Below are positions 9,455 to 55,101 of a stretch of 64,000 bases of DNA, one piece after another (position 1 is the first letter of the stretch; each line of letters starts with the position of its first letter). The translations under genes and the position numbers were made by a program. Location of the stretch: positions 13,907 to 77,906 of the forward strand of contig CADAIJ010000003.1 of the NCBI GenBank assembly GCA_902787955.1. The letters run 5' to 3'. Below the pieces are notes generated by a model. That model had not been told where the DNA came from, made no database searches, and saw only the letters and a list, made by a program, of their open reading frames with translations. The DNA is from an uncultured Erysipelotrichaceae bacterium. Lineage in GTDB: Bacteria; Bacillota_I; Bacilli_A; RFN20; CAG-826.

Positions 9455-10705
9455 TTAATTAAGCAAAAACTTTTTTAGTGGAATAACTTTGATTAAAAAT
9501 CCATCGTTTTCAATTATTTTTTCCTCTTCGTAAGTCACAATCATCAAATTGGATTTGGAATGATTAGCTTTTGCAAAAGCGATTAAATTATTAACTTCAC
9601 GATCATAGGCATCTTTTTCATCGATTGAATACGCTACTTGAATCGCGGTATTAAATTTGGAGAGATAAAAATCAATATCAGTTTTATTGCCTTTGAAGTA
9701 GTAAAGACAATCTTTGTGAGTTCTATATAAATGTAGAGCAACTATATTTTCTAATAGCGAACTTCTTTTATTATCTAAGAAAAGGTTTAATATCCCGTTG
9801 TCCATAAAATAATATTTAGGATTACTATTTTTATCTAAAAAAGAAGCACAATAATTTTCTAGTGTAAACAAGAGAAAAGCATCCTTACAATATCCACAAT
9901 AATCGATAACTATATCTTTAGATATCTTATATCCTATGCCAGTAATAATATTTTGAATCTTAGTAAAAGAAAGGTCATGCTTTACTGATTCAGCAATTTT
10001 TTTAACCATCAGTTTGATGCCGTTTTCATTTCTTATATTGTTATGAACAATAATATCATTATAAAGAACCTTTTGATAAATACTCGAAACATATTCTCTT
10101 TTGTTTTTAAAACTAATAGATTCAGGGAAACCACCATTAACAAAATAATCATTTAATAAACTATTTATTTGTCCAATCTCTTTAACAGAGTATCCATCTT
10201 TGTTTGCTTTGTTAGCTCTTAAAAACTCATCGAAAGAATACGTCATAATTTCCTTAGAAATGTATCTTCCACCTAGTTTTGCTTCCACTTCTTTTGAAAG
10301 CATTTTTGCGTTGCTCCCAGTGATATCAACTTTATATCCTTGATTTGCAACACGAATAGCAAACTTTTCCCAACCATCGATATTTTGAATTTCATCAAAA
10401 TAAAAATAATGTTTTTTATTAGTTAATTCTTCCGCGACTAAAAGAATGTCATCAAAATCATTAGCTGTGAATTCAATCAACCTTTCATCATCAAAATTAA
10501 TATAAATGATTTGTTTCCAATCAACACCTTCATTAATTAATTCTTGCACTCTTTTATAAAGTAATGTTGTTTTGCCTGCTCTTCTTAATCCAACTAGTAC
10601 ATAATTAATGTCTTTTTCTAAAACAATATTCCTGTCAATTATCACAGCATCTTTAATAACTTGATGTTGATCAAAGATAATTCTTTTTAAAGTCTCATGA
10701 TTCAT
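9455..10705 (-). CDS. AAA+ ATPase of the COG1373 family (AAA_14 + DUF4143), paralog 1.
   Basis: Walker A GLRRAGKTTLL and a Walker B-like FDEIQ. 416 aa with a DUF4143-like C-terminus. Confidence 0.8.
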   Translation of the reverse strand: MNHETLKRIIFDQHQVIKDAVIIDRNIVLEKDINYVLVGLRRAGKTTLLYKRVQELINEGVDWKQIIYINFDDERLIEFTANDFDDILLVAEELTNKKHYFYFDEIQNIDGWEKFAIRVANQGYKVDITGSNAKMLSKEVEAKLGGRYISKEIMTYSFDEFLRANKANKDGYSVKEIGQINSLLNDYFVNGGFPESISFKNKREYVSSIYQKVLYNDIIVHNNIRNENGIKLMVKKIAESVKHDLSFTKIQNIITGIGYKISKDIVIDYCGYCKDAFLLFTLENYCASFLDKNSNPKYYFMDNGILNLFLDNKRSSLLENIVALHLYRTHKDCLYYFKGNKTDIDFYLSKFNTAIQVAYSIDEKDAYDREVNNLIAFAKANHSKSNLMIVTYEEEKIIENDGFLIKVIPLKKFLLN

Positions 10706-12022: not shown

Positions 12023-13387
12023 TCATTCTAATAAAAAAGCTAAGTAATGTGGCAACACTAATAATATATTCCCATCTTCATCTATAGATTCCTTGATATT
12101 GAATTCACCAAACTTAATTAATCGTTTAACTTCTGGATAATCTATCTTATTTGAAATCACAGTTTTCGCGGATTTCGTTTTTCCTGATTTAGCCTTAACT
12201 TCCACCAAAGAGATATCTTTTTTATAGCGAGTAATAAAATCAATTTCTAAACCTGATTCTTTACCATAATAAAACAAATCTTTGCCATTCTTAGTAAAAG
12301 CATCAGCGATAATGTTTTCATATAGAGCGCCTTTATAAGAACCTAATTTACCAAATAAAACATCTTCATATACATCTTTTTCTAACATCGCCATAAAAAG
12401 CCCTGTGTCAGCGACATATAATTTAAAACATTCTTCAATCTTATTTCCTGATAATGGTAGTTCAAGTTGTCTAAGATTATAACAATATGTTACTAAACCA
12501 TAATCCACTAACCATTGAATTGCAGGATCATAAATTGTTGAGGTTGCCTTCTTGGCAACTTTTGAATACATAAACTTTTTATTCTCCTTAGCAAGTTGAG
12601 CAGGAATCGATGCGTAAACTTTATTTATTTTAGCGAGCAAAGCTTTATCAAGTTCTTCTTCTTCGTTTTCATTTAGATGCTTGCCATAATCATCTTTATA
12701 TCCTTCTAAAATATCATTTAAAACTGCTCTTACTTGATTTAGATCATTCGTTTTAAGAAAAGTATCTACTGCTTCTGGCATACCTCCTACACATAGATAT
12801 TCTTTAAAATAACGAGTCATCGCTTCATGGATTGGCTGACGAATATTCTCTTTAGCTTCAAAAGAGGATTTTAAATAATTAATGATATCTTGGCTAATAC
12901 CCTTAGCTAATAAGAACTCTTCAAAATCCATTGGTTTCATATAAACAACATGCTCGTAACCAATAGAAGCTCCACCATGATATTTTTTGTTATATCCTTT
13001 TAATCCTAATAAGGAGCCAGAAGCAATCACATCATAACGATCATCATTTTCTACGAATGATTTAAGAGACGCTCTAGCGCCAGAAGATTCTTGAATTTCA
13101 TCTAAAATGATTACTGTTTTATAAGGAATAAATTTAACATCAGGCCTTAATGCGGAAATATTGGTGGTAATAGTATTAACATCTAAATCTCCATTAAATG
13201 CGGTCTTAAGACTTGGCTCTAATTTAAAATTGATATAAATAACATTTTCATAGTTTTTATTTGCAAAATCTTTGATTGATGTTGTTTTGCCAGTTTGTCG
13301 TAATCCTTTTAATAGAAAAACCTTCCTTTTAGTTTTTAAGTTTTCTTTCCAACTAATAAGCTCTGCTTCAATTTTTCTTTTATACAT
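12023..13387 (-). CDS. AAA+ ATPase of the COG1373 family (AAA_14 + DUF4143), paralog 2.
   Basis: Walker A GLRQTGKTT and a Walker B-like ILDEIQ. 454 aa. Confidence 0.8.
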   Translation of the reverse strand: MYKRKIEAELISWKENLKTKRKVFLLKGLRQTGKTTSIKDFANKNYENVIYINFKLEPSLKTAFNGDLDVNTITTNISALRPDVKFIPYKTVIILDEIQESSGARASLKSFVENDDRYDVIASGSLLGLKGYNKKYHGGASIGYEHVVYMKPMDFEEFLLAKGISQDIINYLKSSFEAKENIRQPIHEAMTRYFKEYLCVGGMPEAVDTFLKTNDLNQVRAVLNDILEGYKDDYGKHLNENEEEELDKALLAKINKVYASIPAQLAKENKKFMYSKVAKKATSTIYDPAIQWLVDYGLVTYCYNLRQLELPLSGNKIEECFKLYVADTGLFMAMLEKDVYEDVLFGKLGSYKGALYENIIADAFTKNGKDLFYYGKESGLEIDFITRYKKDISLVEVKAKSGKTKSAKTVISNKIDYPEVKRLIKFGEFNIKESIDEDGNILLVLPHYLAFLLE

Positions 13388-13783: not shown

Positions 13784-14347
13784 TTATTCTGTTGGGCTGC
13801 AATTATATTTAAGGGTAATGGATGTAATTATGTTAGAACCCATAAGAGTGGCTGCTGATATTGAAAAGTATTTATTCCCGTCAAGTTGACTAAATAACTT
13901 TTCTTGCCCTGCGGTTATAGGAGTAAATGCTGCAAAATCATCTAGAGAATTTCTGCCAAGAACTTGAATATTATTATACTCATATCCATTATCCTTAGTA
14001 TCGATTCTTATAGAATAGAGCGATTGGAATTCACTCTTATTTGAAATTATGCCTCCCTTATTTCCCATGAACTGAAGACCTTCGTCGACCTTAGTGAAAC
14101 AATTATTTGCATTATTTACATTAAATGTTAAAGGATTCCCGCTTGTTGTATTAACCACAAAATCAGAATTGACACTTTCAATATCATTTTTGCAGTCAAT
14201 AACAAGCGTATAAAGTGGTATATCAGCTTTAACAATATTAACAGCTTGTAATCCATTAGAGTTAGACATTGCTGCTACACCAACAGTGCCAACGACTGCT
14301 GTACATATAGCGAGTGATGCTAAGATAAGTTTCTTATGACTATTCAT
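13784..14347 (-). CDS. Secreted hypothetical protein with a signal peptide.
   Basis: The N-terminus MNSHKKLILASLAICTAVVGTVGVAA is signal-peptide-like. A perfect RBS AAAGGAGGAATTATT precedes the ATG. Confidence 0.6.
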   Translation of the reverse strand: MNSHKKLILASLAICTAVVGTVGVAAMSNSNGLQAVNIVKADIPLYTLVIDCKNDIESVNSDFVVNTTSGNPLTFNVNNANNCFTKVDEGLQFMGNKGGIISNKSEFQSLYSIRIDTKDNGYEYNNIQVLGRNSLDDFAAFTPITAGQEKLFSQLDGNKYFSISAATLMGSNIITSITLKYNCSPTE

Positions 14348-14413
14348 AATAATTCCTCCTTTTAAGTGAATAGAATAATCCTCTAACGCACTTATGTTAA
14401 TAAAATTAAGAAA

Positions 14414-14432
14414 AGTGTTTCACATTGAAACT
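14414..14432. promoter_or_regulatory. Palindromic operator-like site AGTGTTTCACATTGAAACT.
   Basis: Perfect inverted repeat GTTTCA-CAT-TGAAAC, about 70 nt upstream of the 13784..14347 start codon. The same 19-mer recurs at 20462..20480. Confidence 0.5.
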
Positions 14433-14491
14433 ATTTTCATATTTAAACCACATCTAAAAGCGTTTAATTAAGATTAGAGATTTTAAGAGCA

Positions 14492-14523
14492 ATATAAAAA
14501 CCTCGTGAATAACACGAGGTTAA
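14492..14523 (-). terminator. Intrinsic terminator ending the surface-protein/mscS transcription unit.
   Basis: Perfect 9-bp stem AACCTCGTG/CACGAGGTT with a 5-nt loop, followed on the minus strand by TTTTTAT. Confidence 0.6.
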
Positions 14524-14548
14524 TCTTACAAATTAATCTATCTAGATA

Positions 14549-15571
14549 TTACTTTTTATCATCTATATCCTTAGATAAGTCTTTTTGTTCTTCGACGAAA
14601 GCTTCGACTACTTTTCTATCTTTAACGGATAATTTAGTTTCTTCACTTCCTTGATCATAAGAAACAGTGACTTGTGGGAATGGGATATTGACATTATTAT
14701 CATCAAAGATAATCTTAATTTCTCTATTCAAATCACGTTGAACTTGATAGATATCTGTTTCCTTACATTTAGCGACGAATAAAAGAACAACTGCACTATC
14801 AGCTAATTCGGAAACACCTTTATAGAATGGTCCTTCAACAATAGCAGGGATTTTTTCTTTAATCTTGTCTAAGTTCTCAGCAATAACTTTTTCAATAGCT
14901 TCGATTCTATCGCCATAAGAAACACCAACATAACATTTAGCGACTGATAATTCTTGGGTTTGGTTAACAATGGAACGAATATCACTATTATTCATAATCT
15001 TGATATTGCCACCAGCATCAACTAATTTAGTGGTTCTAATACCGATTGCTTTAACTTCGCCTCTCCAGCCATCGATGATAACGATATCGCCAACTTGGAA
15101 ATCGCCTTCAAAGACGATGAAGATACCGGCGAGGATATCAGACACTAAAGCTTGTGAACCAAGGCCTATAATAAGAGTTAAGACACCAGCAGAAGCAAGC
15201 ATCATTGTGGTATCTGCTCCCCAAGCACCCATAATGATGAATACGGAAGCGATAGCGACCACCCATTTAAGTAAATTTAAGAGAAGTAAGGCTATTGTAA
15301 TTGTCTTCTTCGATTCAAAGGTAATCTTCGCTAAAAGGGAGAGAATGAAGAACGCTGCCGCAGCAATTACAACAATCTGAACTGTTCTAATCATTGCTGG
15401 GAACCCTCTTGTCATCATATAGTTAACAAAGTCCCCTTGTCCTTCAACTGGCACGAAGATCGTTTCACTTCCAAATATCTGTTTATTGAAGACAAATGAA
15501 ACAATAACTCCAGCGGCGAATAGTCCGAATACTATCCAGCCAATTAGTTTAATTACTTTTTTCTTTTCCAT
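14549..15571 (-). CDS. mscS: Small-conductance mechanosensitive channel, MscS family.
   Basis: Three N-terminal TM helices and a conserved MscS beta-domain region (GDxVxIDGxxGEVxxIGIRTTKL). The start was chosen at MEKKK, which is preceded by the RBS AAGGAGG. Confidence 0.8.
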   Translation of the reverse strand: MEKKKVIKLIGWIVFGLFAAGVIVSFVFNKQIFGSETIFVPVEGQGDFVNYMMTRGFPAMIRTVQIVVIAAAAFFILSLLAKITFESKKTITIALLLLNLLKWVVAIASVFIIMGAWGADTTMMLASAGVLTLIIGLGSQALVSDILAGIFIVFEGDFQVGDIVIIDGWRGEVKAIGIRTTKLVDAGGNIKIMNNSDIRSIVNQTQELSVAKCYVGVSYGDRIEAIEKVIAENLDKIKEKIPAIVEGPFYKGVSELADSAVVLLFVAKCKETDIYQVQRDLNREIKIIFDDNNVNIPFPQVTVSYDQGSEETKLSVKDRKVVEAFVEEQKDLSKDIDDKK

Positions 15572-15598
15572 AAAAAATACCTCCTTGAATACATGCAT

Positions 15599-18391
15599 TT
15601 ATCTAACGGAAAAATAATAATTTTGAATTATTGATCGAGTGTATGTGTCGGTTGCTCCCAAATCATAACTATCAAAGGTCATCGACACTGAGACTTTTTT
15701 AGTTTTTAGTAACGCTAATAATTCATCACGATATTCGTAGTCAGTAGGAACAGTAACAACGCCTTCATTAATTCCATTATTAGCGAAGTTAGAAATATCA
15801 AACGGAATGTAGTATGTAGCGGCTTCATTATTAGGATCAAATATTTTTAATTTAGTATTAGATAATTTACCGCTCATACCAGGATAACGGAATAAACCTA
15901 TGTTGAACTCAATGTTATTTGAGTAAACTGTGTCGGATTTTATATAACCACCAACATATTCATTAGTAGTTGAGCCGTTTTCTTGCATATAACCTATTTC
16001 GGTATCATTAATAATCTTTTGACCTGTTCTACTACTAGTGACGTAGAAAAAGGCGTTATTATTATCTAATGCGGTAACATCAAATCCGGTAATTTCGAAG
16101 TATTGGAAACCACTTCTCTTTTCAAGAGGGAAAGTTAATGGGTTATTTGAATCGTTATTATCGGCTAAATAGAATGTTAAATCTAAATATTCATTCGCTT
16201 TATCACTGATACTACCGGAAACACCAATATATGTCTTACTATCGAATGTGTAATATTCATAGTGGATTTGAAGGTTATTAATATGTGAAGTTTCTTCAGC
16301 CATATCAATGATGCCTTCAAATACCACGGTTCCATGATCACTATGATCATAGACAACAAGGGAATAGGTATAGACGCCATTTTCAAAATCAATAGTTGAA
16401 AAATCAAGACTACTCGCACTCTTTATTTCTCCTGATTCTGGTAAGGTCAAATAAGGGTTAAGATTAGTAGCATCACCGCCATCAATTGGAGTTAGCCAAA
16501 GTCCTACTTTTTTATAGAATCCATCCGCAAATGTATCAGTGTAGTCCATGTGCCAACTAAGGACACGCTCATCGGTACTTTCGTAAACTTTAATGCCATC
16601 AAAACTAAGTGAATTGACATGGGCTTCACGACCTTCGCTATCAACGAATGTAATGGTACCGGTAGTATATTGGGTGTATTCTCCAACTGATTCTAAAAGA
16701 TATTCAATCATAAAATTGATTGGTTCATTAGTGTTTAAAGTCATATCGGCTGTATCAGAGACATAGATATAAGTATCATATGGGCTAAATTCAGCGCTTA
16801 GATTCTTATCTTCTAGAGCTTTTTCAGGATCTGGATTATAGAAAGTGATTCTTAATCTAACTAAATCATATTCTGGATCGACATAGTCGACAGTAACTGG
16901 GATTTGATGTTCGGAAGCAGTGAAATCAATTTCATCGTCAATTACAATTGAATTAATCTTGGTTTCTTCAACGAATGTAGCGACGAATTCATAATCTTTA
17001 TCAAGATAAGAAATAATCTTCATACCAGGCTCATATTCACCGCGTCCACTCTTCCAGAATTTAAAGCGATAACCTTCTGGAGGTGTGAATGGGTTTTCAG
17101 GAAGGGTATAAGTTTTGCCTTCTCTTAATGAGATGACAATTGGATCATCGGTCGAATCACCTGGATTAAGAGTGATGTTATATTTAACTGGCGCAGTTGA
17201 AGTATCGAAAACAATATGTTGTTCATCGGTTTCTTTCTCTTCTTCAGCGTAGCGGTAGGTAATGTAATATGAGAATCCATCAGAGTCATCGAAATTAAAC
17301 TGATTTTCATCAGCTGGATCATTAAGCGTGATTGTTTGATATTCACTAGTGACAGCAAGTTCAAATCGTTTAAGATTGTTTTGGCTATCAGATAATATCA
17401 AATTGAAGTTATCGAATAGTTCATCATCATATTCACAAGCGATAAGAACTTCAAAAGTTCCATCTGATAAATCAGGCACTAAATCTAAAGTCACGGAAGC
17501 TTCATCTTCCTTGATTGTGGTTATAAATTCATCATAAATATAGGTGCCAGTAGAAAGGTTTCTAACAATAACTTCATAAGAAGTTTCAGCATTTAAACTA
17601 GTGAAATAGAATTCATTCTTTCCTTCGGTCAAGTCGTATACTTGAAGCTCTGTGCCATCACTTCTGATGCTGATATCATATGTATCTTCTCCATTACCAG
17701 TTAGATATAATCTAACACCAACTTTATTTGCCCATGGAACAAGGTTAGTAACTTTAACAGAACCTTCATCTTTTGGTTCTGGAGTTTCTTCTTTTGTAGT
17801 AACTGTATCTTCGTATAAAACGTAATTATTATAGGTAGTATCAATGACGTAAACGGAATATTCAGTGTTTGATGTCAAATCAACGAATTCACCACTATTA
17901 GAGCCTTCAATGAGTGCATTGGATACAGTATAAGATTCATTCTCAAGTTTAATAATGCACTCATCATTATTGATATCCGCTAAATCGAGTTCATAAACAA
18001 TTGAGTTTGTAGTTGTCTCAATTTGATTCATTTTACATTTAGCGTTAAAGAAAAGATTGATGCCCATTAGTGTTGATAATGTTGTTACTACCACCATTGA
18101 GGCACCTGCTACAGTTGCGATTGTTGTGCCAATAGAGGCAGAGGAGCTGCCATTAGAAGAGCCTTTATTTGAGCCATCTTCTTTCTTGGAAGACTTATCT
18201 TTTCTTTCTTTTTTCTCTTCTTTAATCTTTTTGGACTCATTTAAAACAGGATTATCATTTATTTCATCACGAAGACGATCGTCATTATCAAAGTAGGAAG
18301 TTGATTCGTTATCTTGAGTGCTTCCAAACTCAAAATTAGGATTCTTGCCCTCGTTGGTAATTCTTTCAATGTTAAATTCGTCTCGTTTCAT
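15599..18391 (-). CDS. Large type-II membrane-anchored surface protein. It has a Lys/Glu-rich cytoplasmic N-tail, one TM helix and an extracellular domain of about 800 aa.
   Basis: 930 aa. A Ser/Gly-rich linker precedes a hydrophobic TM at about residues 88-115. The remainder is rich in T, D, Y and N with no enzymatic motif. Confidence 0.6.
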   Translation of the reverse strand: MKRDEFNIERITNEGKNPNFEFGSTQDNESTSYFDNDDRLRDEINDNPVLNESKKIKEEKKERKDKSSKKEDGSNKGSSNGSSSASIGTTIATVAGASMVVVTTLSTLMGINLFFNAKCKMNQIETTTNSIVYELDLADINNDECIIKLENESYTVSNALIEGSNSGEFVDLTSNTEYSVYVIDTTYNNYVLYEDTVTTKEETPEPKDEGSVKVTNLVPWANKVGVRLYLTGNGEDTYDISIRSDGTELQVYDLTEGKNEFYFTSLNAETSYEVIVRNLSTGTYIYDEFITTIKEDEASVTLDLVPDLSDGTFEVLIACEYDDELFDNFNLILSDSQNNLKRFELAVTSEYQTITLNDPADENQFNFDDSDGFSYYITYRYAEEEKETDEQHIVFDTSTAPVKYNITLNPGDSTDDPIVISLREGKTYTLPENPFTPPEGYRFKFWKSGRGEYEPGMKIISYLDKDYEFVATFVEETKINSIVIDDEIDFTASEHQIPVTVDYVDPEYDLVRLRITFYNPDPEKALEDKNLSAEFSPYDTYIYVSDTADMTLNTNEPINFMIEYLLESVGEYTQYTTGTITFVDSEGREAHVNSLSFDGIKVYESTDERVLSWHMDYTDTFADGFYKKVGLWLTPIDGGDATNLNPYLTLPESGEIKSASSLDFSTIDFENGVYTYSLVVYDHSDHGTVVFEGIIDMAEETSHINNLQIHYEYYTFDSKTYIGVSGSISDKANEYLDLTFYLADNNDSNNPLTFPLEKRSGFQYFEITGFDVTALDNNNAFFYVTSSRTGQKIINDTEIGYMQENGSTTNEYVGGYIKSDTVYSNNIEFNIGLFRYPGMSGKLSNTKLKIFDPNNEAATYYIPFDISNFANNGINEGVVTVPTDYEYRDELLALLKTKKVSVSMTFDSYDLGATDTYTRSIIQNYYFSVR

Positions 18392-18439
18392 ATTGTTAAG
18401 AAAGCCTCTTCGTTATTGAACGAAAAGGCTATTTTTGTA

Positions 18440-20392
18440 TTATTTATCTTTTTTCTTAAAGACTTTACCGACACTCTTTTCTTCAACTGGTGTCATTTCG
18501 CCTTTTCTTCTTGTTCTAATGTACCAGAACATAATTCCACCAAGGAGTAAGATTCCTAAGATGAAGGCGATAATAGTGAATGGACATGCATGAACAATTA
18601 AGACGATTAAATCTAAGATGAAGTTAGCAATTAAAGCACATGTTGCAATAAATGTTAATAAGACTTCTTTAGCGGTCATCTTTTCCTTAAACTCATCAAC
18701 CTTAGCGTTATTCTTAATTATTTTTTTATAAACATTTAATCTAAGTAAGACATAAAGTGCTGCCACTAGTGTGATTAAGATATTAATGATTAATAAGATA
18801 ACACCAATACAGAATCCGTGTGATGCACCACCTCCAGCGGCACCTTTAGTGATAAAGGCAAATTCTGATAATTTACTAACTTTGAAGACTAAATCATTTC
18901 CATCAACACTATAGTCACTTACAAATTCCATTTCATCCGCTGAATGGATGTGAAGAATTCTTGCTTTTGACATATCGATGCCATTTGGAATAGCCATGCG
19001 GACTGTAATTATTAATCCTGGTTTAATGTCAGATGGCTGAATAACTGTTTCAACGCCACCAACGATTTGGACTAATTTAACATCGTAAACACTAGCAATT
19101 TTCTCATTCTTTTCGAGCATTTGTTGGATTTTAGCGTAGTCTTCAGCTATATCTTTTTCAGCAACATCAGTTCTAACTTCTACTCTTAACTCAATGTTAT
19201 CTGGAATGACTTCGTCATCAACTTCGACAGTAACATCTGGGTTATTTGGATCGGTGACTTCGGCACCAACGATTTCAAAATCAACTGATGCTGTAGCTTC
19301 ACCAAATGTAACTTTCGCAGTGTATTTACCGACATTAATACATTCAGTTACTTCAGAACCATCTTTATAGTATTTGATTTGAGGGTTTGGGAATGCTTCT
19401 TTGTTATATCCTGATTCAAAAGTGGCTACTTTCTTAGTATTACTGAACTCTAAATCAGTAGGTGCATTAAGTGTTAATGTAAGACCTTCAGTGATTTCAC
19501 ATGGATCGGTTCCACCATTACAAGTTGCGGTAATTTTATTGCCGTCAGCAATGTAATCCCAATCATGATCGTGATTATAAGAATATGGATATCTTAATCT
19601 ACGATAAAGACCGTCATTATAATCTTGAGGTAATGGTTCATTGCCCTTGAAAAGTGTTCTTCCTTCTGTACCTGCTTCATCTGTCCATAAACCAAAATCA
19701 GCGCCTAATTCATAATGATACCTGCTAAAAACAGGGCGAATTGGAAGAACATTTTTAGACACAGCAGTCATATCAAGAGTAACATCTTTACCAAAATAGA
19801 AATAGCATTGTATAGAAGCTTCTTGGGTTTGATTCGCATAGTGACCATAAGCCACAATTGATCTAGTGGTTATTTTAACAGTTTCAGTAAATTCAAAGTA
19901 AGCATGGCAAAATGAGTAAAATGCCCAAGTATAATAATCGTGATTAGCGATAATATTTAATTCTCCATCACCTTTAATTGTCAAATTAGAACAGACAGCA
20001 ATACCATAAATTGCCCATGCTTCAGGTAATTTAATATTATTTACACCCTTCGCATTAATAGTGAACATATCGGAATCACCATAATAAAGAATTACGTGTT
20101 CAACATTGTCAAAACTTTCACCATTATAAGTAAAACTATGTTTAGGCGCTGTCGTAGAATCAAATGTATAGTTATCAAGAGTCAAAGTTGTAGTGCTTGG
20201 GTCATATGACCAGCCATCACCAGAAGTATGGTCAGATGTAACTTCTTCATCTCCGACATAAAGTTTATAGCTTACTGGATCCGCTTTAACTTCTTTAAAT
20301 TCAGCTTGATAATTAATGGCTAATGCAGCGGCAGATAATGATAAAAACGCTGTCGCAAGCGATATAACTAATCTTGATGTTTTCTTTTTCAT
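18440..20392 (-). CDS. Secreted/membrane protein with a signal peptide, a large extracellular domain and a C-terminal multi-TM anchor.
   Basis: The start was reassigned to MKKKTSRLVISLATAFLSLSAAALA, which has the RBS GGAG 9 nt upstream. The C-terminus has 3-4 hydrophobic helices. Confidence 0.6.
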   Translation of the reverse strand: MKKKTSRLVISLATAFLSLSAAALAINYQAEFKEVKADPVSYKLYVGDEEVTSDHTSGDGWSYDPSTTTLTLDNYTFDSTTAPKHSFTYNGESFDNVEHVILYYGDSDMFTINAKGVNNIKLPEAWAIYGIAVCSNLTIKGDGELNIIANHDYYTWAFYSFCHAYFEFTETVKITTRSIVAYGHYANQTQEASIQCYFYFGKDVTLDMTAVSKNVLPIRPVFSRYHYELGADFGLWTDEAGTEGRTLFKGNEPLPQDYNDGLYRRLRYPYSYNHDHDWDYIADGNKITATCNGGTDPCEITEGLTLTLNAPTDLEFSNTKKVATFESGYNKEAFPNPQIKYYKDGSEVTECINVGKYTAKVTFGEATASVDFEIVGAEVTDPNNPDVTVEVDDEVIPDNIELRVEVRTDVAEKDIAEDYAKIQQMLEKNEKIASVYDVKLVQIVGGVETVIQPSDIKPGLIITVRMAIPNGIDMSKARILHIHSADEMEFVSDYSVDGNDLVFKVSKLSEFAFITKGAAGGGASHGFCIGVILLIINILITLVAALYVLLRLNVYKKIIKNNAKVDEFKEKMTAKEVLLTFIATCALIANFILDLIVLIVHACPFTIIAFILGILLLGGIMFWYIRTRRKGEMTPVEEKSVGKVFKKKDK

Positions 20393-20461
20393 AAGAATAA
20401 TCTCCATAAATATATATTTAAGATAATATAGATTTACACATGTATAAATCTTATTAAGCAT

Positions 20462-20480
20462 AGTGTTTCACATTGAAACA
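20462..20480. promoter_or_regulatory. Palindromic operator-like site AGTGTTTCACATTGAAACA.
   Basis: Identical core to 14414..14432. It lies about 70 nt upstream of the 18440..20392 start and in the divergent region shared with the response-regulator gene. Confidence 0.5.
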
Positions 20481-20560
20481 TTTTGCTTTTTTAGCGAAGA
20501 TAACTGTGTAATAATTCTTGTCGATATATTAAATTATCAATATATAGAGGGTGAAACACG

Positions 20561-21157
20561 GTGAAACATACATTTGGTGAAGCGCTTCTAAAAGCAAGAA
20601 AACAAAAAGGATTATCCCAGCAAGAGCTTGCGGAAAGTATACCTGTCACTCGTGCTAGTGTCGCTAACTGGGAAGCAGATAGAAGACTTCCAAACGCTAC
20701 TATTATTGCTAAGATTGCTGAAGTGTTAGAAATAGATGTTAGCGAACTTCTTGATACCGCTAATAAAGATGATATTCACCCAAATGTTATTATCGTTGAT
20801 GACAATAAAATCGTTCTCACAGGTGGAGCACCAATTATTGAAAAAGCCCTTCCTAATGCGAAAGTCGCTTGTTTTACTAAGCCAAAAGAAGCGATTAAAT
20901 ATGCAAAAGAAAACCGCATCTCTTTAGCGTTTTTAGATATCGAACTCGGTTTAACAAACGGGATAGATTTGTGTAATGAGTTACTTGAAATTAACCCACG
21001 TATGAACATTATTTTCTTAACCGCCTATCCAGAATATTCGGTTGATGCATGGAACACTAAAGCGAGTGGGTTTATGGTTAAACCAATCACTTTTGAAGGT
21101 GTTAAAGAACAACTTAAGAAACTAAGACACCCATTCCCAACTGGAGGCATTATTTAA
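20561..21157 (+). CDS. Response regulator with an N-terminal XRE-type HTH and a C-terminal receiver domain.
   Basis: GTG start with the RBS AGAGGG. The HTH is LSQQELAESIPVTRASVANWE. The receiver has IIVDD...FLDIEL...K, with the phospho-acceptor Asp in FLDIEL. Confidence 0.7.
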   Translation: MKHTFGEALLKARKQKGLSQQELAESIPVTRASVANWEADRRLPNATIIAKIAEVLEIDVSELLDTANKDDIHPNVIIVDDNKIVLTGGAPIIEKALPNAKVACFTKPKEAIKYAKENRISLAFLDIELGLTNGIDLCNELLEINPRMNIIFLTAYPEYSVDAWNTKASGFMVKPITFEGVKEQLKKLRHPFPTGGII

Positions 21158-22431
21158 TGCCGGGTGACACTTTAATATATGCCTACTTTTTTATAGGCGG
21201 TGCTTTATTACTTCTTGTTTTATTAGGTTTAGTAGCCTCACTTAGTTTTCCTACTTTAGATAAAAAGAGCAAAATCTTTTTTATTTCATCTTTTTCAATA
21301 CTTGTTTTGAGTATTATCGCTTATATTATCGACTTATTTGTTTATACAAATCCTAGCCTTGCTTGGGTTGGAAAAATAATTGCGTTCTTTGAAACATTTT
21401 TACCATCTGTATTAATGCCACTTCTAACGATCTATGTTTTACTTTGCACGAAAAAAAGTATCCGTAAAAATGCCATTTTCTATATAAATATTGCCTTATG
21501 TGTGGTTTTAATAGCCTTACTTATAGTCACTCAATTTACGGATGGAATTTATTATTTTACCGACGAAAATGAGTTCGTTCGTGGTGACTTCTACTTTGTT
21601 TTAATTGTCCCGATGCTCGCGTTAATTGCCTTAAACCTTCTTCTAATTATTTATAATCGTAAGCTTCTAGATAAGATGTACTTTATCGCATTTCTTATAT
21701 ATTTAATTCCTTTATTAATAGTTATGACTTTGCAGACTTTTATTTCGGTCTTTATCCTTATTGTCTTAGCTATATCTATTAGCGCATTATCGATGTTTGG
21801 AATTATTATGTATGACCAAATAGATCAATACTTACGTCAACAAAGAGAAATAGCGGATCAACGCGCTAGTATCAAGGTGTTACAAATGAGACCTCACTTT
21901 ATCTATAACACAATGACAAGCATCTATTATTTATGTGTACAAGATCCAGAAAAAGCTCAACAAGTAACCCTAGACTTTACAACTTATCTTCGTAAGAACT
22001 TTAATGCAATAACTAGTAAAGAACCTATTCCTTTTAGTGAAGAACTTGAACATACTCGCGCTTATTTAGCGGTCGTTAAAGCTCAATATGAAGATAACCT
22101 TAAAGTGGAATTTGATACACCTCATACTAAGTTCCGTGTACCACCTTTAACTTTACAACCACTTGTTGAAAATTCCGTTAAATACGGACTAAATATTGAT
22201 TCTACTGAACCATTACGTGTTTCTATTAAAACAGAAAAAGTTGATAATGGCAGCGTTATTATCGTTAGCGATACCGGCCCAGGCATTTCAGGTGATGATA
22301 ATGGAGAACCACATATTGCTTTAAATAATATTCGTGAACGTCTATCGTTAATTAAAGGTACATTAACCATTTCACCAAATGAAAATGGGGGCACTATTGT
22401 TAGCATCTATATTCCTGATAATAACAAATAG
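21157..22431 (+). CDS. Sensor histidine kinase, LytS/YehU-like (multi-TM sensor + His_kinase + HATPase_c).
   Basis: About 6 TM helices. The H-box RPHFIYNTMTSIYYL and the SDTGPGISGDD G-box are present. Its start overlaps the stop of the RR gene. Confidence 0.75.
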   Translation: MPGDTLIYAYFFIGGALLLLVLLGLVASLSFPTLDKKSKIFFISSFSILVLSIIAYIIDLFVYTNPSLAWVGKIIAFFETFLPSVLMPLLTIYVLLCTKKSIRKNAIFYINIALCVVLIALLIVTQFTDGIYYFTDENEFVRGDFYFVLIVPMLALIALNLLLIIYNRKLLDKMYFIAFLIYLIPLLIVMTLQTFISVFILIVLAISISALSMFGIIMYDQIDQYLRQQREIADQRASIKVLQMRPHFIYNTMTSIYYLCVQDPEKAQQVTLDFTTYLRKNFNAITSKEPIPFSEELEHTRAYLAVVKAQYEDNLKVEFDTPHTKFRVPPLTLQPLVENSVKYGLNIDSTEPLRVSIKTEKVDNGSVIIVSDTGPGISGDDNGEPHIALNNIRERLSLIKGTLTISPNENGGTIVSIYIPDNNK

Positions 22432-22476: not shown

Positions 22477-23730
22477 CTATATAGAGGAAACAGGAAGAAC
22501 ATAACAATCTTCACCGATTGAATAAATCGCGTGAGTAGTACACACTATTGCATTTTTGGTGCGTCTAAGCTTTGTTGATTTGAATAAGTCAAAGGCTTTT
22601 ATATCGTCCTTTTTATATGTTTCTCCACTTTTTAATTCCACTAGAGAAATATTACCGTCGAATACTATCACTAAATCAACTTCATTCTTATCAAAGGTTC
22701 TAAAATAATAGAAAGATGTATTGACATCCTTGTGGTTGTTTTTATAACTTTTAAGTATTTCATTGATAATATAAGTTTCAACGATATGTCCCTTTAAATA
22801 AGAGTTTTTTAATGTCTCTGGAGAATTAACTCTTGCTAAATAACACGCCAATCCTGTATCGGAGAAATATACTTTTGGTCTTTTAACAACCCGTTTAGAA
22901 ACACTTTCTTCATAATATGGTTGCAATAAATGGATTATATTTCCAGCTACCAAAACACTAATCCAAGATTGTACGGTTTTCATATCTATCCCAACTTCTT
23001 TTGCTAAATTGTCATAGATTAATTCTTGGCCAGTAAGAGAAGCTAATATTGTCATAAAATTAATGAATTTTTGCTTGTCTTTTAATGTTATTAAATCCGA
23101 GACGTCTCTTTCTAAGTAAGTTGTTACGTAATCTGAATAAAATGAACCAGTATCCAAATCCTTATTATCATAAAGTTCTGGATAAAAGCCTCTTACAATG
23201 TATTCATAAAGGTTATTCGTTTCAATCATATATGTATTACATCTTTCGTTAATATGATTGATATCAATTACAAATGGTTGTTCAGAAACATTATTAATCT
23301 CACTCAGAGATAATGGTTCCATTGAAATAAGACCAACCCGACCAGACATAGACTCAGTAATGCCTTTCATAAGTTTATAGGCTTGAGAGCCTGTCAAAAC
23401 ATACAAGCCTCTCTTTTTTCCAGACTTAATATGAGCATCCACTGCACCTTCTAAATAATCAAATAGCTCTGGAGCTTTCTGTATTTCATCAATAATATAT
23501 GGAGCTGGATGAAGAGATAAAAATTCAGCAGGATCATTTTTGGCTGCGTTTCTAACAAGTGGATCCGCTAAAGAAACATACCCGAACCCTAAATCTTTTT
23601 CAATCAAACCACATAAAGTCGTTTTTCCGACTTGCCTAGCGCCTGTAATAACGGTAACGGCTTTGTTTTTAATTGTTTTAATAATTTCTCGATAAATTGT
23701 TCTTTCAATCATTATTTTTACCTCAAACAT
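22477..23730 (-). CDS. AAA+ ATPase of the COG1373 family (AAA_14 + DUF4143), paralog 3.
   Basis: Walker A GARQVGKTTL and a Walker B-like IIDEIQ. 417 aa. Confidence 0.8.
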   Translation of the reverse strand: MFEVKIMIERTIYREIIKTIKNKAVTVITGARQVGKTTLCGLIEKDLGFGYVSLADPLVRNAAKNDPAEFLSLHPAPYIIDEIQKAPELFDYLEGAVDAHIKSGKKRGLYVLTGSQAYKLMKGITESMSGRVGLISMEPLSLSEINNVSEQPFVIDINHINERCNTYMIETNNLYEYIVRGFYPELYDNKDLDTGSFYSDYVTTYLERDVSDLITLKDKQKFINFMTILASLTGQELIYDNLAKEVGIDMKTVQSWISVLVAGNIIHLLQPYYEESVSKRVVKRPKVYFSDTGLACYLARVNSPETLKNSYLKGHIVETYIINEILKSYKNNHKDVNTSFYYFRTFDKNEVDLVIVFDGNISLVELKSGETYKKDDIKAFDLFKSTKLRRTKNAIVCTTHAIYSIGEDCYVLPVSSI

Positions 23731-24182: not shown

Positions 24183-25415
24183 TTATCTTTTTAGCAAAAC
24201 TTCTTTTTCGTATTCTCTGACTTCTTTTAACATCTCAGCGTCACTTACCATATTTTGACGTTTAAGATATTCGTCCCAAACTTCTCCCCATGGTAATGTT
24301 TTTAATTCTTCTTGAAGCGCTAAAACTGAGGTATGATCGCCATTATCTTGAAGTTCTTTTAACTTATCCCATGGTGTTAATAAAGCCTTTAATAAAGCCT
24401 TTTCCATATTTCTTGCACCAATCACCATCGCTGCAATTCTATTAATAGAAGCATCAAAATAATCTAAACCGATATAACTTCTTTTTAATCCATCACATTT
24501 TACTAATTCATCAGCGACATCTTGAAGATCATCATTAAGTTTTAAAACGTGATCACTATCCCATCTTACTGGCCTAGAGACATGGAAGGCTAATTTGTTA
24601 TAGAAACAGTACATTGATGAAATCTTATCAGCGACATTTTCTGTTGGATGGAAATGACCGGTATCTAATAAGCAACAAATATTTCTACTGGCTGCGTAAT
24701 TCAAATAAAATTCATTACTACCTGTAGTGTATGATTCAACACCGATTCCAAAGACCTTACTTTCCACGGAAACATCCATAACTTTCTTATCATATTTATA
24801 ACCTGCAAGAATTTTATCTAAAGAATCTTTTAATCTCATTCTTGGACCTAATCTATCTGCTGGAACATCTTTGAGTCCATCAGGAATCCAAATGTTCATC
24901 AATGACTTTTGTCCTAGTTCTTTGCCAAACATTTCGGTGATTTTTAAGCCATTTATGCAGTGTTTTATCCAATAATTACGAACTTTTTCATCTGGGGAAG
25001 ATAAAGAAAGACCATCCACTAACATAGGGTGAGAAAAGATTGTTGGATTATAATCTAAACCCAAGCCTCTCTCTTTAGCGTATTTTACCCATTCTTCAAA
25101 TTGTTCAGGTCCAACATCACATCTTTGAACGATTTTACCTGTTTGATAAATAGCGTGGAGATTAATTTTTTTGCTACCTGGAATATAACTTAAAGCTTTG
25201 TCTAAATCCTTTGTTAATTCTTCAAAGTTTCTCGCTCTTCCTGGATAGTTACCCGTAGCTTGAATCCCACCAGTTAAATCTCCATCTCCTTCAAAACCTT
25301 TGACATCATCAAGTTGCCAACAATGAAGGGAAATCTTTGTTTCTTTAAGTTTCCTTAAAGCTTCAAATACATCCAATCCATAAGATGCATAAATTTCTTT
25401 GATTTGTTTTCTCAT
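24183..25415 (-). CDS. rhaA: L-rhamnose isomerase.
   Basis: 410 aa. The N-terminal region ...LHCWQLDDVKGFE... and overall similarity match the RhaA family. Confidence 0.85.
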   Translation of the reverse strand: MRKQIKEIYASYGLDVFEALRKLKETKISLHCWQLDDVKGFEGDGDLTGGIQATGNYPGRARNFEELTKDLDKALSYIPGSKKINLHAIYQTGKIVQRCDVGPEQFEEWVKYAKERGLGLDYNPTIFSHPMLVDGLSLSSPDEKVRNYWIKHCINGLKITEMFGKELGQKSLMNIWIPDGLKDVPADRLGPRMRLKDSLDKILAGYKYDKKVMDVSVESKVFGIGVESYTTGSNEFYLNYAASRNICCLLDTGHFHPTENVADKISSMYCFYNKLAFHVSRPVRWDSDHVLKLNDDLQDVADELVKCDGLKRSYIGLDYFDASINRIAAMVIGARNMEKALLKALLTPWDKLKELQDNGDHTSVLALQEELKTLPWGEVWDEYLKRQNMVSDAEMLKEVREYEKEVLLKR

Positions 25416-54434: not shown

Positions 54435-54510
54435 GGATGTTTAGCTCAGTTGGGAGAGCATCGCCTTTACACGGCGGGGGTCAGGGGTTCGAGCCCCTTA
54501 ACATCCACCA
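54435..54510 (+). tRNA. tRNA-Val (anticodon TAC).
   Basis: Acceptor GGATGTT/AACATCC followed by A and CCA. Anticodon loop TTTACAC. Confidence 0.85.
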
Positions 54511-54527
54511 TTCTCTAGGGTCCAAGT

Positions 54528-54611
54528 GGAGGAATAGCGAAGTGGCCAAACGCGGCTGACTGTAAATCAGTTCCTTAGGGTTCGGTAGTTCAAATCTACC
54601 TTCCTCCACCA
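54528..54611 (+). tRNA. tRNA-Tyr (anticodon GTA).
   Basis: Acceptor GGAGGAA/TTCCTCC followed by A and CCA. Anticodon loop CTGTAAA. Long variable arm. Confidence 0.8.
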
Positions 54612-54616
54612 CTCCT

Positions 54617-54692
54617 TGGGGTGTAGCCAAGCGGTAAGGCATCAGACTTTGACTCTGACATTTCGCTGGTCCGATCCCAGCCACCCCAACCA
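54617..54692 (+). tRNA. tRNA-Gln (anticodon TTG).
   Basis: Acceptor TGGGGTG/CACCCCA followed by A and CCA. Anticodon loop CTTTGAC. The D-loop AGCGGTAAG is Gln/Glu-type. Confidence 0.8.
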
Positions 54693-54695
54693 GAT

Positions 54696-54726
54696 AATAA
54701 GAAATCTCACTGAGAGATTTTTTTCT
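54696..54726 (+). terminator. Intrinsic terminator after the first tRNA triplet.
   Basis: AAATCTC-ACTG-AGAGATTT followed by TTTTTCTTTT. Confidence 0.5.
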
Positions 54727-54834
54727 TTTATATAAATATAAATCAATAAAATGAATAAAATTTCAAAAAAGTATGGATAATAAAATTATAATGTGCAATA
54801 ATATCAAAGCGATTTTTAGAAATCGCAACGGAAT

Positions 54835-54911
54835 CTCCCGTTAGCTCAGTTGGCTAGAGCACTCGACTTTTAATCAAGGGGTCGGACGTTCAAATCGTCT
54901 ACGGGAGACCA
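54835..54911 (+). tRNA. tRNA-Lys (anticodon TTT).
   Basis: Acceptor CTCCCGT/ACGGGAG followed by A and CCA. Anticodon loop CTTTTAA. Confidence 0.85.
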
Positions 54912-54914
54912 CTT

Positions 54915-55002
54915 GCCCAGGTGGCGAAATTGGTAGACGCAAGGGACTTAAAATCCCTCGAGTGCATAACTCATACCGGTTCAACTCCGGTCCTGGGCAC
55001 CA
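54915..55002 (+). tRNA. tRNA-Leu (anticodon TAA).
   Basis: Acceptor GCCCAGG/CCTGGGC followed by A and CCA. Anticodon loop CTTAAAA. Long variable arm. Confidence 0.85.
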
Positions 55003-55026
55003 TCAATACGCCACTTTTTAATTTAT

Positions 55027-55101
55027 TGGGGCGTAGCCAAGCGGTAAGGCAGCGGGCTCTGAACTCGCCATTCACTGGTCCGAATCCAGTCGCCCCAGCC
55101 A
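55027..55101 (+). tRNA. tRNA-Gln (anticodon CTG).
   Basis: Acceptor TGGGGCG/CGCCCCA followed by G and CCA. Anticodon loop CTCTGAA. It is a paralog of the TTG isoacceptor. Confidence 0.8.

Follow-up and report, generated by a model that had tools for sequence, protein, structure and literature searches.

A conserved palindrome linked to an XRE-receiver response regulator and a LytS-type kinase in an uncultured Erysipelotrichaceae bacterium

A contig of an uncultured Erysipelotrichaceae bacterium (CADAIJ010000003.1, assembly GCA_902787955.1) carries the same palindrome in front of two transcription units for secreted or surface proteins, one of which is divergent from the genes of an unusual two-component system (TCS). 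The locus was studied within a window of 64,000 nt, by which we mean the whole stretch of DNA analyzed and to which all coordinates refer unless a different locus is named. It raises the question of whether the palindrome is an operator and, if so, which protein reads it and to what effect. Based on the comparison of related loci, we propose, with a probability of about 75%, that the palindrome is the operator of the adjacent TCS and that a dimer of the phosphorylated response regulator (RR) binds it and activates a small local regulon. A shared-operator regulon had been put forward in an earlier note on this DNA and gains support from the comparative evidence; that the RR is the binder, that it needs to be phosphorylated, and that binding activates transcription are three points that we infer.

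The palindrome and its conservation

The 19-mer AGTGTTTCACATTGAAAC(T/A) occurs on the plus strand at 14414-14432 and 20462-20480, exactly where the earlier note had placed it, and these are the only two matches in the whole window even if up to three mismatches are allowed (0.11 expected). Both copies are intergenic. The first ends 66 nt upstream of the ATG of a gene for a secreted protein of 187 amino acids (aa; ATG at 14347, minus strand) and the second ends 69 nt upstream of the ATG of a gene for a 650-aa membrane protein (20392), in agreement with the distance of about 70 nt given before. Read on the gene strand, the block common to both copies is GTTTCAATGTGAAACACTnTnCTTAAT, with 25 of 27 positions identical; it is longer than first noted, and the remainder of the two upstream regions cannot be aligned.

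A weight matrix was trained on 10 protein-anchored sites, all from outside the window. Site 1 (20462-20484, core 20465-20479, minus strand; AAAATGTTTCAATGTGAAACACT on the target strand), located between the divergently transcribed 650-aa and RR genes, scores 35.7 bits. Site 2 (14414-14436, core 14417-14431, minus strand; AAATAGTTTCAATGTGAAACACT on the target strand), located upstream of the 187-aa gene and 3′ of the mscS terminator, scores 31.3 bits. The next best of the 128,000 positions reaches 11.5 bits, which is within the spread of the top scores obtained from shuffled windows (10.8 on average, 13.8 at most), indicating that the window contains exactly two sites.

Related loci were found via their proteins and not via the motif, which yielded 12 independent loci with a total of 201.7 kb; a metagenome scan with the RR gave seven loci, and exact-protein look-ups supplied most of the orthologous loci (individual loci are referred to by our L numbers). 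The 12 protein-anchored loci contain 15 exact GTTTC-N5-GAAAC cores, compared with 0.2 expected from base composition. Every locus (12 of 12) that encodes an RR with at least 67% identity and includes enough upstream DNA has exactly one core between the RR gene and the divergent surface-protein operon. The palindrome is therefore conserved at the orthologous loci, where its absence would have spoken against the proposal of the earlier note. The intergenic DNA around it has diverged past alignment. At the level of sequence, such conservation amid unalignable flanks is a clean phylogenetic footprint.

On the strand of the target gene, the extended form of the motif reads AAAAnGTTTCAAtsyGAAACACT. 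We collected 20 sites and tabulated 19 of them. Both pentamers are invariant in all 19; the twentieth site, in front of a 184-aa gene in L018, has one mismatch. According to the 19-site table, the motif centre consists of AAT plus two variable bases, with variation in the central three to four bases, and the flanks are asymmetric, with AAAA on one side and ACT on the other. The perfect 6-3-6 inverted repeat described in the earlier note holds for part of the family (13 of 19 sites), but the general form is 5-5-5. No compensatory changes between the half-sites were found among the tabulated sites, which indicates that the element is read as sequence rather than as a hairpin.

Just 3′ of the motif, the target strand carries conserved blocks that differ between lineages. 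One of them, ACTnTnCTTAAT, is shared by the window (14396-14416 and 20444-20464, minus strand) and L018. In L011, L013, L064 and L090, the sequence ATTCTTTYC begins 12 nt past GAAAC, and a similar block is found at 13 nt in L014, while L002, L020, L036 and L092 carry GAGGAACCCATCCTTATTAT or a close variant. Within one genome, both motif-bearing promoters share the downstream block, as seen in the window and in L020.

Linkage to the two-component system and its regulator

The gene content described for this region before (the 187-aa, 650-aa and 930-aa proteins, mscS, a terminator and the TCS) agrees with our own gene calls. On the plus strand, the RR gene (20561-21157) encodes an XRE-type helix-turn-helix (HTH) domain followed by a receiver (HTH_3 and Response_reg), and the start codon of the histidine kinase (HK) gene (21157-22431; PF06580 and HATPase_c) overlaps the RR stop codon. 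The divergent operon on the minus strand begins with the gene for the 650-aa protein (18440-20392), whose start, MKKKTSRL, lies behind a GGAG ribosome-binding site. This protein has a signal peptide and C-terminal transmembrane segments and matches no Pfam family above the cut-off. The second gene (15599-18391) encodes a 930-aa type-II membrane-anchored surface protein with a counterpart of 930 aa in L018, and the last one, starting directly after it, a mechanosensitive channel of the MscS family (14549-15598; PF00924, PF21082). The operon ends at an intrinsic terminator (14499-14521, minus strand; AACCTCGTG-TTATT-CACGAGGTT and then a T-run). The gene for the 187-aa secreted protein (13784-14347, minus strand) forms the other transcription unit that carries the motif.

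This arrangement is conserved. In the related loci, the RR-HK pair faces a divergently transcribed operon that encodes between one and three secreted or surface proteins of very large size; Flg_new, Big_2, LRR_5 or CBM26 domains are present in several of them. The channel gene of the operon encodes MscS in the window, L008, L012, L013, L018 and L093, and an aquaporin-type MIP protein (aquaporin/glycerol facilitator) in L011 (2998-3714) and L014 (4404-5111). This alternation of MscS and MIP hints at osmotic or membrane stress as the stimulus or the output of the system. The overlap of the RR stop codon with the HK start codon is found in all loci, and the RR gene is the sole transcription-factor gene that consistently adjoins the motif.

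To determine how tightly the motif is linked to the TCS, we scanned 185,579 species-representative genomes with the exact pattern AAWNGTTTCAANNNGAAACACT, which matched 70 stretches. Seven of them (eight sites) are in-clade, that is, from metagenome-assembled genomes (MAGs) of Bacilli or Erysipelotrichaceae, six of which are named as ruminant-gut samples; the species of the window itself is not among the matches. A tblastn search detected an RR/HK orthologue at most 4 kb from the match in all seven. The remaining 63 stretches belong to taxa outside the clade, in most cases of a different phylum, and none of them encodes the RR within the retrieved stretch; their number lies within the range expected by chance (35-180, estimated from pattern length and base composition). 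No in-clade site away from the TCS was found in this exact-pattern scan. An occurrence in front of many unrelated genes, which the earlier note had named as evidence against its proposal, is thus not what the two sites in the window and the seven TCS-linked in-clade stretches present. Checking the matches for stop-free frames revealed that true intergenic sites fall in stop-free extensions of real genes.

Some of the matches outside the clade are not single chance events, and these are unrelated to this TCS. L046 (6092-7147), which together with L054 comes from a Saccharicrinis MAG, contains five copies of the pattern at intervals of about 260 nt, which points to a repeat of the tandem or interspersed kind, and two contigs of Chloroflexota (L023 and L058) match at identical positions.

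A second copy of the motif before a neighboring gene for a secreted or surface protein is not restricted to the window but was found in five other loci (L018, L020, L021, L060 and L092). In L020, from a distant lineage with higher GC content, the genes for the XRE-receiver RR and the PF06580 kinase are followed directly by one for a homologue of the 187-aa protein with 48% identity. An exact motif (GTTTCAATCTGAAAC) precedes the ATG of this gene by 96 nt, in addition to the copy that L020 has upstream of the RR gene, in the divergent region. The 187-aa homologue of L018 is 80% identical and is preceded by the one-mismatch site mentioned above. In L021, L060 and L092, the gene that comes after the kinase gene encodes a type-II anchored surface protein with a length of about 720 aa, and the second exact site precedes the start of this gene by about 60 nt; for the protein of L092, Pfam reports Flg_new and LRR_5. 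Judged by these predicted genes and sites, the two-site layout is kept in distant lineages. The family of the 187-aa protein comprises seven homologues found by us. The protein of the window shows no similarity to the 650-aa and 930-aa proteins or to a 157-aa protein of L008, and because it is unrelated to the other operon proteins, gene duplication was ruled out as the origin of the second motif copy.

L092 is informative in another respect. Only a short, frameshifted piece of its divergent surface-protein gene is left (9840-9960; ATGAAAAAGGAACATTCATCGGGCTGA), yet the RR gene is still preceded by an intact promoter and motif. The retention of the motif after the decay of the target gene fits autoregulation.

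The MAG RGIG3500 contains two paralogous RR/HK loci (L036 and L060) with the motif at each, and their RRs are 73% and 77% identical to the RR of the window. This pair represents either a duplication of the TCS with a shared operator type or a strain mixture in the bin.

The RR consists of the XRE-type HTH (residues 5-68), a linker, and the C-terminal receiver (residues 75-185), with Pfam matches to PF01381 (E = 7.4e-14), PF12844 (1.8e-11) and PF00072 (9.7e-18). The Pfam matches extend over residues 10-63 for the HTH and 76-184 for the receiver. In the AlphaFold2 model, the HTH domain comprises five helices (5-16, 20-26, 31-38, 46-56 and 60-68) at a pLDDT confidence score of about 90, and the linker is disordered at residues 66-71. 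The receiver residues D80, D81, D126, T154 and K174 are invariant in an alignment of 33 orthologues with at least 70% identity. The recognition-helix segment from S33 to R42 (SVANWEADRR) is also invariant or nearly so in these proteins, which matches the invariance of the half-sites. Thousands of relatives of the RR are present in the database. The top 120 are 70-94% identical, all have an HTH and a receiver, and their sources are MAGs of Bacilli and Erysipelotrichaceae, for the most part from the ruminant gut. Proteins with the full-length architecture form a family of modest size: of the 150 best representatives, a few dozen clusters at 50% identity match over almost the entire length.

A further hint comes from a more distant homologue. 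The RR encoded in L006 is 60% identical and differs at four of six recognition-helix positions, and GTTTC-N5-GAAAC is absent from this locus. The place where the motif otherwise sits is taken by another inverted repeat, GAATTCACCG-N18-CGGTGAATTC (1577-1630 of L006), which reaches a putative –10 region (TATAAT) and may be the operator of a class with diverged specificity. The combination of changed helix and lost motif is suggestive of covariation between the RR and its site.

The kinase matches PF06580 (4.3e-17) and PF02518 (3.6e-07). Reading its translation, we find about six to seven hydrophobic or transmembrane helices at the N-terminus, followed by the PF06580 and HATPase_c domains, and the H-box RPHFIYN. 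Neither 5TMR_LYT nor any other Pfam domain matches the N-terminal 240 residues at E ≤ 0.01. A multi-pass sensor in front of PF06580 and HATPase_c is also the layout of the kinases of LytS/LytR, BtsS/BtsR and YpdA/YpdB. LytS/LytTR-type systems control small regulons of membrane or envelope genes located beside the TCS, as is proposed here. They differ in their output: a C-terminal LytTR domain in place of the N-terminal XRE-type HTH, and binding to direct repeats, whereas the motif described here is an inverted repeat. No match to a LytTR domain was found in the RR, whose output is the N-terminal HTH_3/HTH_19.

By sequence, the receiver is closest to those of BtsR and LytR and thus groups with the receivers of LytS-type systems. 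In fold, AraT and XynC are among the closest. These RRs of the YesM/YesN-type systems AraS/AraT and XynD/XynC of Geobacillus also have partner kinases of the PF06580 type, but they carry a C-terminal AraC-type HTH and regulate sugar-uptake genes. Taken together, the TCS looks like a member of the LytS lineage in which the usual LytTR or AraC output was swapped for an XRE HTH placed ahead of the receiver.

Sequence matches of the HTH in the PDB include SinR, ImmR and C.BclI. Regulators of the Cro/CI/SinR/ImmR type resemble the RR in their five-helix HTH_3 and, if the motif is its operator, in a palindromic site with half-sites one helical turn apart; their C-terminal domain serves oligomerization or is a peptidase or ligand domain, in contrast to the phospho-receiver fused to the HTH here. 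A Foldseek search against the PDB gave no full-length analogue of the RR. The sole full-length fold matches were to PhyR, at poor superposition (root-mean-square deviation 13-16 Å). PhyR shares the order of N-terminal effector and C-terminal receiver, but its effector is a sigma-like domain that acts by partner switching and does not bind DNA.

The literature on regulators combining an XRE domain and a receiver yielded only two proteins. DigR of Myxococcus xanthus is an RR with an HTH_Xre output that regulates how the extracellular matrix and cell surface are composed (PMC3509222); compared with the RR described here, its domain order is reversed (N-terminal receiver, C-terminal HTH), its partner SgmT is an orphan hybrid kinase that is cytoplasmic and not of the PF06580 type, and it belongs to a different phylum. 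LtrR of Methanococcoides burtonii has an N-terminal HTH and a C-terminal receiver (PMC5847659), but it is archaeal and its HTH is a different one. No NCBIfam family reaches its cut-off with the RR, and a characterized bacterial regulator with an XRE HTH followed by a receiver was found neither in the searchable literature nor in NCBIfam nor, by sequence and fold, among solved structures.

Promoter geometry and mode of action

On the target side, the good –10 hexamers predicted for the higher-GC lineages (TAGAAT, TATAAT or TATACT) start 27-29 nt past GAAAC. In L005 and L091, the predicted –10 region starts 50 nt past the motif, with a readable TTGCCG-17-TATAAT in L091. For the AT-rich lineages, including both promoters of the window, the best –10 candidates lie at 39-40 nt, with an alternative at 34 nt; the candidate promoter of the 187-aa gene (TTAACA-17-TATTCT, 14372-14400, minus strand) has its predicted –10 hexamer 39 nt past the motif. 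The predicted –35 hexamers are poor at motif-bearing promoters. These –10 offsets place the motif centre near –47, –58 or –69. Steps of about one helical turn and a location upstream of the core promoter would correspond to the pattern of an activator site, and the predicted offsets thereby agree with the class-I/II activator position suggested in the earlier note.

On the side of the RR gene, most lineages show a conserved (TG)TATAAT or TAAAAT 25-30 nt past the motif, and others at 43-47 nt; in the orthologues, the candidate –10 region reads TGTATAAT or TAAAAT, 25-28 nt past the motif. The candidate extended –10 region of the RR promoter in the window is TGTAATAAT (20507-20515, plus strand), the hexamer of which would begin 30 nt past the motif.

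With their centres 10 bp apart, the half-sites are on the same side of the helix, which is the arrangement expected of a site for an HTH dimer. XRE-type HTH proteins bind palindromes as dimers, and lambda CI can activate from a site adjoining the –35 region. In the mechanism that we propose, the multi-pass LytS-type PF06580 kinase would phosphorylate the C-terminal receiver of the RR, and receiver-driven dimerization would join two N-terminal XRE-type HTH domains, which as a pair would read the half-sites GTTTC and GAAAC. Bound upstream of promoters with a good –10 and a poor –35 region, the dimer would most likely activate transcription. The predicted regulon comprises the divergent operon for the large surface proteins and the channel (650 aa, 930 aa and MscS), the nearby gene for the 187-aa secreted protein, and probably the RR-HK operon itself, which would be subject to positive autoregulation via the divergent promoter.

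Several points weigh against this proposal. A different, unlinked regulator could recognize the site. Seven of the collected sites are biased, as they stem from the scan that queried the motif itself, although the 15 protein-anchored sites are free of this bias. The genome scan used the exact pattern without mismatches, so that weaker distal sites may exist. The covariation argument draws on L006 as a single locus. Finally, the –10 assignments in AT-rich lineages are ambiguous and compatible with activation as well as repression, and many XRE-family proteins are repressors.

The last point leads to the main rival explanation, according to which the RR binds the palindrome as a repressor, similar to XRE, CI or SinR, that is released or remodeled upon phosphorylation, with the site overlapping an unrecognized promoter. 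XRE-family regulators are mostly repressors, and a perfect TATAAT is located only 8 nt past the motif in L090, at a position where the window promoters have a CTTAAT block. The motif retained in L092 after target decay would fit negative autoregulation equally well. However, this block is not a usable –10 region in most lineages, and where promoters are readable, in the higher-GC lineages, the best –10 hexamers (TAGAAT, TATAAT) are those described above at 27-29 nt, or at 50 nt in L005 and L091, combined with a poor –35 region, so that the motif would precede the core promoter instead of covering it. We therefore regard repression as unlikely, but as the alternative that deserves most attention.

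Much less probable is that the palindrome is bound by an unlinked factor, such as a global regulator controlling the surface-protein operon. The connection between the RR and the DNA is deduced from genomic context, and the asymmetric flanks (AAAA/ACT) are not explained by a simple symmetric dimer. But a global regulator should have other sites, and none were found in the rest of the window, nor did the genome scan return in-clade matches away from the TCS; in L092, moreover, the motif stays with the RR gene after the decay of the target. Comparison by eye with consensus sequences gave no match to cre, CodY, Rex or TnrA boxes or to the –35/–10 consensus of extracytoplasmic function (ECF) σ factors. 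An ECF promoter (TGAAAC as –35, CGTa as –10) was rejected because no conserved CGT is present 16-17 nt past TGAAAC at any of the sites on either strand.

That the element is an RNA or DNA hairpin acting as a weak terminator, insulator or processing site is the least credible reading: both copies with their flanks do fold at –7 to –13 kcal/mol (z-scores –2.6 to –5.6) and a T-run follows on the plus strand, but the half-sites are invariant in the 19 tabulated sites without compensatory substitution and the outer pairings are not conserved, the stem has only 5-6 AT-rich bp, the terminator scan did not call the element while the real mscS terminator lies 70 nt away, no co-oriented plus-strand gene ends upstream (for these reasons an intrinsic terminator was rejected), and the element would not be transcribed if the predicted promoters are right.

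One candidate for an additional operator was discarded. The tandem repeat GTGAAACA/GTGAAACACGGTGAAACA across the RR start (20551-20568) had been considered as a possible autoregulatory site in the earlier note, which itself allowed for chance. It consists of the Shine-Dalgarno sequence (GGAGGTGA) and codons 1-3, its coding part being GTG-AAA-CAx (Met-Lys-His/Gln/Arg). Among orthologues, the spacing of the repeat ranges between N4 and N6, and several lineages lack it.

With the palindrome as operator of the RR, the kind of regulation would be a familiar one: a TCS with a palindromic operator and a local regulon that includes a divergent target operon. The unusual part is the uncharacterized architecture of the regulator, for which AAAAnGTTTCAAtsyGAAACACT now offers a concrete DNA target. 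The proposal also predicts a compact regulon of large surface proteins and a channel in uncultured rumen bacteria. A more far-reaching view, which we put forward tentatively and consider somewhat doubtful, is that this is the first defined operator and regulon for a regulator with N-terminal XRE HTH and C-terminal LytR-like receiver, working with a PF06580 kinase with a sensor resembling seven-transmembrane proteins. In these uncultured rumen Erysipelotrichaceae and Bacilli, the system, with its site helically phased at about –47, –58 and –69, might serve as a dedicated switch for large adhesin-like surface proteins co-expressed with a water or tension channel (MIP or MscS). If true, it would link a membrane or osmotic signal to the remodeling of the cell surface.

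Further features of the locus

A second palindrome, GATAT-N6-(A/T)TATC, is located at 20523-20538, between the putative –10 region and the ribosome-binding site of the RR gene, and is unrelated to GTTTC-N5-GAAAC. We observed it upstream of the RR start in four lineages, namely the window (GATATattaaaTTATC), L013 (GATATacgaaaATATC), L014 and L064. L008, L011, L018 and L090 lack it, and their corresponding region is shorter by about 25 nt. This palindrome may be a second operator or part of an alternative promoter (TTGTCG-17-TATATA in the window).

Three paralogous genes for AAA_14/DUF4143 ATPases surround the locus (9455-10705, 12023-13387 and 22477-23730), and the 187-aa gene of the window is placed between mscS and one of them. 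Since an ATPase gene follows directly after mscS in L013 and L093, without a 187-aa gene, the 187-aa unit looks like a lineage-specific insertion.

Directly beyond the TCS, a long series of minus-strand genes begins with one for L-rhamnose isomerase (24183-25415; RhaA, PF06134 as annotated in L015), with which no copy of the motif is associated. Elsewhere in the window, six tRNA genes (Rfam RF00005) are clustered on the plus strand at 54435-55098.

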